DNA from: Podarcis liolepis
Lineage: Eukaryota
Assembly: GCA_965112155.1 (NCBI GenBank)
Contig: OZ218098.1
DNA: 64,000 nucleotides
Reading direction: 5' to 3' (one strand)
The notes beneath the pieces were generated by a model, which saw only the letters and a list, made by a program, of their open reading frames with translations, made no database searches and was not told the origin of the DNA. Made by a program: the position numbers and the translations under genes. Positions 18,427 to 60,193 of the stretch are shown in pieces; position 1 is the first letter of the stretch; every line of letters starts with the position of its first letter.

Positions 18427-44628
<26,202 letters not shown>

Positions 44629-44638
<10 letters not shown>

Positions 44639-44683
44639 GGTGGATTGATGGAGCAAGATCCCACGTGGCTCGCGGATAAGATT
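44629..44683 (-). CDS. PAX6: PAX6 exon 4 (45 nt UTR + ATGCAGAACA; start codon 44638-44636)
   Basis: ctcatag acceptor, CCACCATG context and gtaagt donor. Confidence 0.95.
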
Positions 44684-45069
44684 CTATGAGTAATAAAACA
44701 GGCTTTAATCAGGGGAGGGAAGCTCGCGGGCAGGTAGTTGCGCTGCGCTGAGTGCCCAGGTCTCCAAGGCCTCGATGCTTTCTGCTGGCCTCCCAAATGG
44801 TGTCAAATATTTTATATATATTTATATATATCATGCGAAAACCCTCCCAGCCCCAGAGCCTATATAACAAAAAACCTGGAAACGTTTCAACCTAGCAAGT
44901 CTAGTTCTTTAAAAAATAAATAAACATAAACCAGCCGTGGCCTTCTCCTCGGCAAACTGGCTGTGGCAGTGAGAGTTCGTGAAACACCAAGGAAAATGGG
45001 TCGCAGTGTGAGCAGTCTTCTAGTGATGGGGGACGGGGACGGGGAAAGTAGAAGGTGCTTCCAACTTGC

Positions 45070-45146
45070 CTGATTTATGAGCGGACTCTCCTCTCTGGCA
45101 ATTTAACGACTCACACATCTGCGTAGCGCTTGTTAAAGTCTTCCCG
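45070..45146 (-). other. PAX6: PAX6 non-coding exon 3 (77 nt) with GC donor
   Basis: cctag|CGGGAAGACTTTAAC...GCAGATGTGTGAG...ATCAG|gcaagt; similar to human exon 3 in length and sequence. Confidence 0.85.
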
Positions 45147-45301
45147 CTAGGATGAGGGGAAAAGTATATTAAAAGTATATTAAGCACTTTTAAATTTGCG
45201 TTCCCTAACCTCCTCCCCGCCACCCACCCCAGTCATAGCCGCCTCGCATTTGGAGGTGGGGGTGGGAAGAGAAAGGCAGTTCAAAAGATTCAGAAACACA
45301 C

Positions 45302-45380
<79 letters not shown>
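45302..45380. repeat. (GA)n microsatellite
   Basis: About 39 units. Confidence 0.95.
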
Positions 45381-45384
<4 letters not shown>

Positions 45385-46379
45385 ATGCCCAAGTTTTTTC
45401 CAGCACGCCTTACTGGAGCGCCTCCTGCCCATAGGAAAGAGTTCTGATCTGTGACACCTTTTGTGTCCGTATTTACAAACAGGACCTCGACTTTGGTTGG
45501 GCTTGGTTTGGCTGAAGGGAGCCGGCGCGACGTCCTCGCGCTGCACTTTGGGGCCAAAGGACCCTTTCTCTGAAAAGAGGTGGCCAGCAGAGTTTGTTGG
45601 CACTTTCTCTCCCTGGGTCCCCCTACCCCAGCTGCAACCTCTCCAGGTTGCTTATGGGCAAATCCTGCTCTCTTGCATGGGGCGTGGGTGGGTGTGCTGG
45701 GACACTTCTTTCCCTTTTTAAACCACACATGTTTGGGAGCTACTTCACTCTGGTGATTCTTTTCGGGGCACTACTAACCATCCTGAAAAAACAAAACCCG
45801 AAGAGGGAGAGAGAAGTGGGGAGGTGGTGGTGGGGGGGGGGGGAGAGAGAGAAATCCACTTATTGTGATTAACTTCTTTTTTGGTCTTTAGATCTTCCCC
45901 TTTTTCACTGTACTGTGACACACGCTGTCTACCTCGCCTCAGTGCTTTAAAAAGTAAGGCCAGGAGGGGGTGAGGGCTGGGAATACAAAGCCTCCAGAAG
46001 GCGAACAATGGCCTCCATTTTACTCCCCTACCCAAACGCCGAGCGCAAGACCCCAGCCAGGCAGCCTCCTCCGGAACGGGCCGCGGCGCAGCCTCCCAAC
46101 TCCGCGTTCCCAACAACCCTCCAACTTACAAAGGAGCGGGTGGGAGGGGGGGGCACACAGCGGCCTTCCTCCTCCCTTCTGTAGGGCCCGCCTTGACCCA
46201 CGCAGCCTGGCCAGCCCCAAGCCCGGGCTTGGGTTGTTTTTGTTTTTAAACCGGCCTTTTGAGGAATAAGACGAGGAATAATGCAACAACAAAAGAAGTT
46301 CTGCAGTTCTTGATGTTCTGTGTTGCATGTATTTATTTATTGGGTCCCAGCGCTTTCTTTTTAGGTTCCCAGCCTAGCA

Positions 46380-46520
46380 GGGGGAAAATAGAAAAGTAAT
46401 TTCTCGTTATAAATATCTGGAGGTAATTATGTTACTGGTGTGAGTTGTTAGGGGTTGTAAAAAGATACAACAGCGCAGTGGGGTGCTCAATTGGGGTGAG
46501 ACAATTACAATAAAGAACCT
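46380..46520. promoter_or_regulatory. Candidate conserved element in intron 2
   Basis: AT-rich complex block inside the GC-rich domain with TAATTA and ACAAT motifs. Confidence 0.4.
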
Positions 46521-47109
46521 ATTCAAGAGGTTTTGCTTTTAAAAAAAAAGAGGGGAGAGAAGACTGAGAGAGAGAGAGAGAGGAGGTAAAATAATGAAAT
46601 AGTGGCAGCCTTCATTTTATTCGCCCCCAAAACCTCCCCCCTTTTTATTTTTTTGGAAGCTTTAAAAAATCTCTTCTCTTTCCAGGCTATAATGAATATT
46701 AATTTTATTCTTTCTACATAGAAAAAGAAGCATCTTCTCCCGGGTCCAAAACGACTCCGGTATGATTTTTTAAAGTGCTTTTTTCCCCAAAGCCATCTAC
46801 GTCCCATTAAAAGGGGAAAAAGAAAATCAACACGGAACAAGGACTCCTCTCTCAGCGTGAATGAGGCGCGCGGTGGTAAATATTTACTCCGCTTTGGAGA
46901 GGCACCTGATTAGCAGCCGAGCCAAGCGCCCTGGACCCTTCTCCGGAAAAAGCCGGTGCCTCCAGTCGCCCAGAGTTTCCAGAAGGCGCCCCTTTAACAC
47001 ACCAAACACGTCTGCCGGGACACACGCTTGCACGCCGGACAACCGCTCCAAGACAGAAAGACGCCGAAGCGTGAGAAGCAACGAGAGAGAGAGAGCCTTT
47101 TTCGCCCAG

Positions 47110-47870
47110 GCGCGGGGGACTGTTATTGTGAACACTTCCCAGTCTCTGCTATACCAACTGGCGAAATGCATTTTAAGGAACTCACTTTGGCACTTATTTG
47201 GGGTGTTAACAAACAAAGACGGCTAGCTGGTTTCAGGCACCAACAAACAAACCGAGGCGTTATTCTGATGAATCCGTGACAGCAAAATTGGGGTAGGGGG
47301 GAGTGAAGAGATAAAAGAGAGAGAGAGAGAGAAAGATTTGGGCTTTTGGGCTATTTTAATTAGAAGGTGGACTGAGCTCTACAACCACCAGCAAAACCGA
47401 CCCTTCTTCCCTTCCCCCACCCGGAAGCGCAATAATGGTGGAGTTTCTCTCTTTGCCAGAAAGTAGCTCCTTTTTACCGAATTTTTAAAATGAAATTATT
47501 CACAAAGAGATGCAGGTAGGCAGAGAGCAGCCTCGATCGAATACCCCGGTGAGATTACAAAACCTAAGCGAAACGCAACGTCTCCTTGGTCCCGGCTAGG
47601 CCTAATCTGCAAATTCCTATTTAAATCTCCAAATCTGGATCTAATCTGATCGTCTTTGAGATTTGATCCTCCCCTCCGCTGCAAACATAATTAGCTATTA
47701 AGATGACAAACGTTTACAATCCCGGGCCGAATAAGCAAAAGATAAACGCTAATTCATTGGCGTGGAGACGTTTGCTAAAGGTCACCGGCTATAAAAATTT
47801 ATTGCCAAAGACCACAATTATTATTTTAGGCCTATAAAGACGCTCACCCTCCAGCCATAATGAATGGCTT
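47110..47870. promoter_or_regulatory. Candidate conserved elements in intron 2
   Basis: Blocks at 47115-47290 (aacaaacaaag, tgacag) and 47680-47870 (taatta, gtttac, ctaatt) are dense in Fox/Sox/homeodomain motifs. Confidence 0.35.
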
Positions 47871-49215
47871 CACTTTCTGGAAGGAACTGCTCGGTGCTCT
47901 CGACTGGGCCTGAAAAGTTTATTTGTAAGCCTGGTCGCATCAGGAGTTTCTCCCCTCGTATTTTAAACCCCTGATTTGAAGAAGCCAGTGGTTTATTATT
48001 CCCTCCCCCTAGTTAGATTAGTTTAAATAGAGTTAAAGAAAACATACAGAAGTTTATTCTTGCACTCCTGAAGCGATCACTTGTGCAGCCCTTGCCTATG
48101 CAAGTTCACTCAGAAATGCTTTTTGTTTCAGTGACGTTTATTCTCACATGAAAGTGTGCGTAAAATCTCAGCCTCAATGTATGGCGATAGAGGTGGAAAC
48201 ACTGAAGAAGCGAGGAGGTGGGGAATGAACTTTTTTTGGGGTCGCCCTGCATTTTACGTGAGTCTGGGCGAAACTTCGAAACATCCACCCAACAAGGAAA
48301 TGAGATTTCGAAAATCCAAAATCAAACCAAAACAACAGCAACAAAAAACCCATTTGCTACTTGAAAAGGAAGCAGGCAACATTCTCTAGCCTAGAAACTT
48401 GTGGAGAATGGGGTGGGGGGAGCTATTGATCGCAGATTCTTTGGAGCGCAAAACTCAGGAGACTTAAACGATCTCGGAGATTTGAGTGAAGTGCTGGGGG
48501 GGTGGCAAAGAGCGCAGAGAGAGAAATGTTATTTTTTTGTGGCTGTTTTTGTTTAAACAGTTTGTACTTCGAGCCAGGTAGTGATCAAGTTAGAAAGTTC
48601 TGCTCATTCCTAGTCTCGTCGTGGACAAGTTTGGGGAGATCTCGCGGCTGCTTGATTGAGAGTGACAGTCCTTCAGCTCCGCTCAGACCTTCCCGGATAC
48701 AACTACTGAGACCTGACTTGGCCTAGAATGTGACTCTGTGTCGTCGTCCCCCCCTCCCGCCGGCCCGCGTGTCTCTCTCTTCCCCATTTCCTTAAGGTCG
48801 GTTAGTTTGAGGGGGAAAAGAGATATAGACATAAATAAAGGGAGAAGCGAGAGTTGCCTAAACGAAAGTCCCTCATCAACACACACGCATACGCACACAC
48901 AGCTTCAGCTTGACGGAGATACAAAGCAACCAGGGAAAAGAAGCGGGGGAGAAAGACGCTGAGCTTGGATGGACCCAGCTTCCCAAGAAAGCAAGCGGCC
49001 GAGCAACGCAGTGTGGTTCATAACGCCTCCTTCACAACAACCGCAACAACAAATGCCCCTCATAGGAACCAGGTGTGATGCATTCTCGTGTGTGTGCGCG
49101 CGCTCAGATGATCCCTACAGCTTTGGCCGTCCCTACCGCACTGTGCTAAACGGAGTAAGCCTTTCGTGGGGCTCTGTCTAGCGGAAAGGCCGGGCGAGTC
49201 TGCTGCTGTTGCTAT

Positions 49216-49217
<2 letters not shown>

Positions 49218-49270
<53 letters not shown>
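49218..49270. repeat. (GA)n microsatellite
   Basis: About 26 units. Confidence 0.95.
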
Positions 49271-49273
<3 letters not shown>

Positions 49274-49542
49274 TTTCTCAGAAAACAGGGGCGGGGGTCG
49301 GTCCATGAAGGAGGAAGAGGAGGAAAAAGAAGAGGAGGAGAAAGAAGGCTGGAGCGAAAAGGACAAAGTTTGGAAGCCTTTGAGACTGGCCTCTCGTTTA
49401 AGATCCTTTCCCGGAATGTAAGAAATGGTGTGTATGTGAGCGAAACAGGGGGGGGGGAGAGAGAGAAAGGGGGGGGGAGAGGGAGAGACCTGTCTAAATA
49501 TTAAAATGAACTGAAGCGAGGAGAAGAAACGAGCAGACTCAC

Positions 49543-49688
49543 CTTTCTGAGGCATCCTGTCTTGTTGTCAAAGCTCCTGTCAATAGTTTTAAAAAGCGCC
49601 CCTGATTTGAAATGATGGTGCCTTAAAAAGGGTTGCCAGTAAAAGAGTTTTTCTCCACTGAAGCTGCTGGTTGTGTGATCTTGAGTTC
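49543..49688 (-). other. PAX6: PAX6 non-coding exon 2 (146 nt), with uATG at 49555-49553
   Basis: cccag|GAACTC...GTGGAGAAAAACTC...CATTTCAAA...GGATGCCTCAGAAAG|gtgagt matches mammalian exon 2. Confidence 0.9.
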
Positions 49689-49810
49689 CTGGGAAGGAGA
49701 CAGAGATTGACAATAAAATGGGCTGTCACTGACTGGAGAGGGAGAAAGAAAGAGGATGTGAGCGAAGTAGGGGGGAGAGAGGGAGGGAGAGAGGGAGAGA
49801 CAGAGCACAC

Positions 49811-50050
49811 CTATGCTGATTGGTGATGGTTCAAGTGTATTAATGTATGTGTGCGCCTGGTCTCTGCCTCGCCTCCCCTGCTCCCCACTGGCCCATTAGC
49901 AAAGCCTGACCTCTGTCATCATCTTCCAGCAAAACACTTCCTCCCTGCGCCTGAACCAGAGCGGGAAATGAGGCTGAGCCAGGGCTCGCTTTTCAAACCC
50001 ACTAATCACTCCACGCATGCAAATGCTCCGCTCGCTCCCACACAAAATAT
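49811..50050 (-). other. PAX6: PAX6 exon 1 (P1 transcript; 5' end approximate)
   Basis: ...CATTTCCCGCTCTGGTTCAGGCGCAGG...GACAGAGGTCAGGCTT...CCATCACCAATCAGCATAG|gtgtgc is near-identical to recalled human exon 1. Confidence 0.9.
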
Positions 50051-60047: not shown

Positions 60048-60193
60048 CTGTTAGAGAGAGGGCAGGCAGAGGCTCATGATCCGCGGGTTCCCAATTGCGC
60101 CTCTGAGAGTCGGTAACTGGCAGGTTTGATCGCCAATTTCTACATAAGAATCTGCCACACAGTTTAAATGTCAACGACAATAAAAAAGAGGGT
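60048..60193 (-). other. PAX6: PAX6 exon 0 (P0 transcript)
   Basis: Starts ACCCTCTTTTTTATTGTCGTTGACATTTAAACT (like mammalian exon 0) and ends AACAG|gtaaac. Confidence 0.8.

Follow-up and report, generated by a model that had tools for sequence, protein, structure and literature searches.

An upstream start codon in the PAX6 leader of Podarcis liolepis as a probable ancestral Pax6 translation start

Human PAX6 carries a uORF (upstream open reading frame) in its 5' untranslated region. As described in a passage of PMC7617937, it spans exons 2 and 3 with its stop in exon 3, and skipping of exon 3 leads to an overlapping open reading frame (ORF) thought to cause aniridia. Passages of other papers give the length of human exon 3 as 77 bp (PMC7093334), describe its skipping as demonstrated by minigene (PMC9934858) and list two exon-3 duplications as losses of the uORF stop (PMC13087467). 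The work on the human uORF is that of Filatova et al. 2021, cited in passages of PMC7617937, PMC11062406, PMC12822670 and PMC13087467; the passages on the uORF in the human papers do not trace its origin. A second described system is the N-terminal extension of fish Pax6, called teleost-specific in a passage of PMC3554528; according to a passage of PMC2242813, a zebrafish pax6b translation-start morpholino covers the exon-2 ATG. Here we analysed the PAX6 leader of the lizard Podarcis liolepis, located on the minus strand of a 64,000-nucleotide stretch of contig OZ218098.1 (assembly GCA_965112155.1), referred to below as the window. In our assessment, the exon-2 ATG of this leader is probably the original bilaterian Pax6 start, set off from the protein in transcripts that contain exon 4 and serving as a splicing-tuned brake on translation.

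Layout of the lizard leader and the human-type uORF

The leader and the beginning of the paired box comprise the following features.

49543..49688, minus strand: PAX6 exon 2, 5' leader, 146 nt, with AG/GT ends; the Podarcis lilfordi protein model P0008 reads through it
49543..49555, minus strand: 13-nt stub consisting of the upstream ATG, codons M-P-Q-K plus one base, and ending at a phase-1 GT donor; likely ancestral Pax6 start and sole match in the window of the invertebrate stub pattern
45070..45146, minus strand: exon 3, 77 nt, with a GC donor, holding the uORF stop (splice-site reading; human exon 3 is 77 bp)
45133..45135, minus strand: TAA that closes the 8-codon uORF of transcripts with exon 3 (computed)
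45116..45118, minus strand: exon-3 ATG in weak context (computed ORF); the bat model P0052 and the bird model P0421 begin there
44629..44683, minus strand: exon 4, 55 nt (3n+1), the fish counterpart being put at 54 nt (computed, with fish proteins)
44658..44683, minus strand: codons, RATW among them, whose +1 reading is homologous to the fish extension; 6/9 identical to salmonid and 7/9 to sturgeon P0343
44645..44657, minus strand: 13-nt zone that probably holds the extra base (four codons, 12 nt, in fish), placed by the frame switch against sturgeon
44636..44638, minus strand: main PAX6 ATG (MQNS), read from the sequence
38502..38632, minus strand: exon 5, 131 nt, start of the paired box, with a phase-1 acceptor, read from the sequence
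38521..38523, minus strand: TGA closing the overlapping uORF (computed)

Reading frames were computed for the possible splice forms. With exons 2, 3 and 4 joined, the exon-2 ATG lies 135 nt upstream of the main ATG and in frame with it, but a TAA ends the frame after 8 codons, leaving 108 nt between the end of this uORF and the main ATG. When exon 3 is skipped (2-4-5), the exon-2 ATG stands 58 nt before the main ATG at 44638, which is preceded by 45 nt of exon 4, and is shifted by +1; the result is an out-of-frame ORF of 59 aa that overlaps the main ATG. An earlier reading of the letters alone (the sequence-only reading) had given both the 58-nt distance with its +1 shift and the 59-aa ORF with its TGA at 38523-38521 in exon 5, and recomputation returned exactly these values. 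That reading had omitted exon 3, however, and its 59-aa ORF is exact for the exon-3-skipped form, whereas inclusion of exon 3 gives the 8-codon uORF. A check for another exon-4 acceptor restoring the frame covered 12 AG positions between 44790 and 44669, none of which lets the frame of the exon-2 ATG run open into the main frame.

Two further arrangements follow from the same computation. From the exon-3 ATG at 45118, an overlapping ORF of 71 aa runs in the same +1 frame even with exon 3 retained; skipping of exon 4 brings this ATG into frame with PAX6. Direct splicing of exon 2 to exon 5 places the stub in frame with the paired box, the phase-1 end of exon 2 being completed by the two bases with which exon 5 opens.

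The lizard leader thus resembles that of human PAX6 in its exon-2 start, in the stop within a 77-nt exon 3 and in the overlapping ORF formed upon exon-3 skipping. Since the human uORF likewise crosses exons 2 and 3 and becomes an overlapping ORF without exon 3, the regulatory element is already known, and the 59-aa form is the exon-3-skipped state of a human-type uORF. By analogy with the human gene, the lizard exon-2 ATG likely acts in translational control. The lizard differs in that its exon 3 has a GC donor (45068-45069, minus strand) and that a Podarcis model, P0008 from P. lilfordi, joins exon 2 directly to exon 4, with 15/15 residues before the main Met identical to our sequence. Because of this donor and this model, exon-3 skipping in lacertids may be a natural isoform.

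Among the 120 listed of 267 matches to a 49-residue exon-12 peptide, P0008 alone reached 100% identity, which places the window in a lizard close to the wall lizards. In this model the 98 residues ahead of MQNS form one open stretch of the main frame through exons 2 and 4, probably a chance effect, and part of the model's N-terminus is matched by an upstream exon at about 60050-60117 (minus strand). Exon 1 contains two more upstream ATGs, at 49922 and 49919 (minus strand), and its donor lies near 49910 or near 49810.

The invertebrate stub and the origin of the exon-2 ATG

In many Pax6 proteins, the paired box comes right after MPHKG or MAHKG. The pattern M[PA]x[KE]G was found immediately before it in 72 of the 462 collected proteins with a readable paired-box start, in 53 of them at residue 1. 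Starts of this type occur in hagfish, two crinoids, an acoel, a tardigrade, an acanthocephalan, the nematode Trichuris and many arthropods. Models P0344 and P0346 (both sterlet), P0369 (eel) and P0408 (whitefish) start with the exon 2-5 join.

At the DNA level, the stub was sought in Pax6 loci on metagenome contigs. We found 344 loci and kept 80, of which 23 were excluded for lack of a readable Pax6-type start; the remaining 57 represent 41 distinct loci. The 13-nt stub followed by GT gave 12 sense matches in 190,291 upstream bases of the 57 loci; the antisense count was 0, as was that for 178,045 downstream bases, and each shuffle gave 0.01. Matches fell in 7/41 distinct loci, and in six of these the stub is followed by a clean GT..AG intron of 109-6593 nt that joins it in phase 1 to the paired box. 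The seventh, locus L037, was dropped from the clean count: its stub lies 1.1 kb upstream, with no AG at the expected acceptor. The paired-box exon of L037 seems to be extended upstream. At one shared position ahead of the paired box, 35/41 loci have an AG, and other offsets reach at most 2; a few of these AGs are contiguous coding K-G rather than acceptors.

In the window, the stub pattern has a single match, at 49555-49541, against 0.02 expected. It consists of the exon-2 ATG and the next 10 nt, which code for M-P/A-x-K and run up to a phase-1 GT donor that lies upstream of the paired box. The MPHKG/MAHKG start of invertebrate and hagfish Pax6/eyeless is built alike, as a 13-nt ATG stub with a phase-1 exon end, upstream of the same paired-box acceptor. 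The lizard differs in having exons 3 and 4 between the stub and the paired box and Gln instead of His at residue 3. Given that the stub matches and serves elsewhere as an exon end spliced onto the paired box, we take the uORF ATG to be the likely start of Pax6 in the bilaterian ancestor; for this part of the interpretation taken alone we consider the case strong. The sequence-only reading had called the uORF a relic of the fish extension, which appears too shallow: its ATG is likely a pan-bilaterian Pax6 start.

Several points weigh against this interpretation. The motif comprises four codons and is short, and the searches that found it were aimed at it. No stub was seen in 34/41 loci, many of which have under 1 kb of upstream sequence, and models of molluscs, an annelid, sea urchins and hemichordates have other N-termini. 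The phase-1 acceptor is shared by two Pax2/5/8-type genes of the lizard genome and is not specific to Pax6; a passage of PMC4488758 implies this acceptor position for deuterostomes. Because the position is common to Pax2/5/8-type genes, the stub is the specific evidence. None of the 462 proteins is a tetrapod model with an exon 2-5 start, and the lizard splice forms and their translation were computed from DNA.

The hagfish model bears on the exon numbering of jawless fishes. A passage of PMC6925180 equates the short first coding exon of lamprey with mammalian exon 4. The stub-type start of hagfish suggests that the jawless-fish first coding exon may correspond to exon 2 rather than exon 4, a comparison that covers hagfish.

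Related genes were also inspected. A search of the lizard genome with a Pax4-like protein found no clear Pax4, and the two loci inspected were of the Pax2/5/8 type. The Pax4-like representatives P0203, P0253 and P0264 (our label) carry a Met five residues ahead of the paired box, where a 13-nt stub in a Pax4/6 ancestor would place it. The stub also opens P0129, a divergent Pax6 with a filefish label that may be a divergent paralogue or foreign DNA.

Exon 4, the fish extension and rival explanations

The fish N-terminus given in the sequence-only reading was found in database proteins. The fish-type extension opens 109/618 collected proteins, and the named ones seen are all from ray-finned fishes, including sturgeon and paddlefish. 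The extension is therefore not teleost-specific, contrary to PMC3554528. It uses the same ATG and the same exon as the lizard leader, and 10 of the first 13 residues of the lizard +1 frame are identical to the salmonid, eel and goldfish models. Against sturgeon, the +1 frame agrees at 7/9 exon-4 residues and then at 0/6, while the lizard main frame equals the last 6/6 sturgeon residues. Since the match passes from the +1 to the main frame within 44657-44645, the extra base probably lies there. In ray-finned fishes the extension is in frame with MQNS, whereas the tetrapod version is off by one base (58 nt, +1, in the lizard).

The models of birds and beaver read exon 4 in the same +1 frame, with implied lengths of 55 and 61 nt, and the axolotl model shows the lizard register in the main frame. 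Because these animals share the register of the lizard, the one-base offset appears to be at least tetrapod-wide, judging from the protein models. The claim that a fish extension was turned into a control element thus holds in part: the uORF start and the first nine exon-4 codons are homologous to the fish extension, the one-base offset stands, and a translational role is likely from what is known of the human orthologue.

Some fish models vary further in this region. Between exons 2 and 4, P0352 (Huso huso) is seven residues longer and changes frame, which suggests a 22-nt insert, possibly exon-3-like, that would uncouple the stub in sturgeon too. Among P0333, P0338, P0327 and P0328 are fish models with a further in-frame cassette after exon 4 and, from hake and burbot, an extension that is three residues shorter.

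As to the direction of change, we lean towards an ancestral in-frame read-through of exon 4. The alternative, which we hold to be a serious possibility though not the better one, is that exon 4 was born out of frame with its own ATG and that ray-finned fishes gained read-through by loss of one base. The fish-like codons of the lizard would then come from a shared precursor rather than from former coding sequence, and the stub would still be ancestral. This alternative draws on the distribution of the read-through, seen in ray-finned fishes only, and on the label teleost-specific used in the passage of PMC3554528. MQNS is where two lungfish models, X1 and X2 (P0427, P0038), and one from skate (P0365) begin, which points weakly the same way; however, the cartilaginous evidence is one skate isoform, and fishes with the extension also have models starting MMQNS. 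A new exon within a coding intron would, moreover, be more easily born in frame, and in-frame inserts at the junction of stub and paired box do occur in fish and acoel models. The second acanthopterygian copy was rejected for dating because its origin is disputed, according to a passage of PMC4122933.

The sequence-only reading had further taken the readable codons as a sign of continued constraint on the peptide, and this part was not borne out. In comparisons of small samples at the protein level only, relic-frame identity of the lizard was 6-7/15 with three birds and 4/9 with beaver. Control frames reached the same level (6-7/15; main frame against lizard, 7/15 for axolotl and 6/15 for P0116), and non-coding exon 2 gave 6/10 between lizard and sturgeon. 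For comparison, the coding frame retained 13/15 residues between salmonid and sturgeon and 7-10/15 in divergent fish paralogues. A badger main-frame comparison gave 1/15, out of register because its exon is longer. On these counts the peptide appears no better kept among tetrapods than non-coding control frames, and constraint on it is not supported; readable codons would therefore need only a slowly evolving leader.

For this reason we find it unlikely that the fish extension is ancestral and that the shifted peptide is still selected as a conserved-peptide uORF. Its best arguments are the 10/13 identity to fish, a Trp codon retained in lizard, three birds and beaver, and an exon 4 that stays 3n+1 in all of them, at 55 nt in lizard and the lengths implied above for birds and beaver. 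The relic-frame identity nevertheless remains at control level, compared with 13/15 for the salmonid-sturgeon coding frame. In addition, the main-frame Q-G of axolotl, as read from P0368, would exclude Trp there, and the human variant c.-44T>C, located in the same stretch, was negative in a reporter (PMC10771650).

A different objection would make the ATG a mere passenger, retained through its place in a conserved 5' leader beside a splice donor and without a translational role in lizards. The similar conservation of non-coding exon 2 between sturgeon and lizard fits such a passenger. Human variants that remove the uORF stop, however, are listed as causes of aniridia in passages of PMC7617937 and PMC13087467, exon-3 length and stop position agree between lizard and human, and the exon-2 ATG has A at -3; we rate the passenger as rather improbable. 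A one-base assembly error in exon 4 concealing an in-frame fish extension is very unlikely, to the point of being negligible: only one of four runs, X5, covers exons 3-4 (two gap letters unplaced, an intronic AT repeat skipped in the alignment), but its contig differs there by five substitutions, all in intron 3, with no listed indel, and P0008, birds, beaver and axolotl share the register.

A proposed demoted start under splicing control

The preferred explanation of the exon-2 ATG as a demoted ancestral start can be put as a series of steps. In the ancestor, a phase-1 splice would have led directly from the 13-nt stub to the paired-box exon, as in the invertebrate loci. Vertebrates would then have inserted exon 4, including its own ATG, into the intron that separates the two. 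The ray-finned version of exon 4 keeps the frame and gives a 19-residue extension; the tetrapod one appears to be 3n+1. Ribosomes may initiate in part at the exon-2 ATG. With exon 3 included, the 8-codon uORF would end 108 nt before the main ATG and allow reinitiation with mild damping; with exon 3 skipped, the 59-aa ORF running over the main ATG would repress more strongly. Skipping of both exons 3 and 4 would give in-frame PAX6 with the ancestral N-terminus. The features kept are likely the ATG, the splice phase and the frame, not the peptide.

Models of bat and bird join exon 3 to exon 5, so that exon-4 skipping is annotated in amniotes. A bolder extension, which we offer tentatively and think somewhat doubtful, is that the demoted start, pushed out by two inserted exons, can still yield full-length PAX6 with the ancestral N-terminus, tetrapods included, if exons 3 and 4 are both left out of the transcript.

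The uORF and the fish extension have each been published; their link, and the link to the invertebrate start, are likely new. Among the papers listed in our search, none links the uORF to the fish extension or to the invertebrate start, although older fish or amphioxus Pax6 papers outside the search may note it. A bioRxiv match on exon-4 skipping concerned HMMR, not PAX6.

The dose of PAX6 matters, and alterations of its exon 2/3 uORF cause aniridia. Traced to an ancestral start, this uORF would be a clear case of a uORF that arose when an exon was inserted and initiation was taken over, rather than through de novo gain of an ATG. The finding also corrects the teleost-specific label of the fish extension and questions the correspondence, given in the passage of PMC6925180, of the jawless first coding exon with mammalian exon 4. 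It predicts an in-frame exon 2-5 isoform. If this prediction is true of tetrapods, PAX6 would have an unrecognised isoform, and splice switching might offer a route around exon 3/4 and start-codon variants or to a higher PAX6 dose in aniridia.

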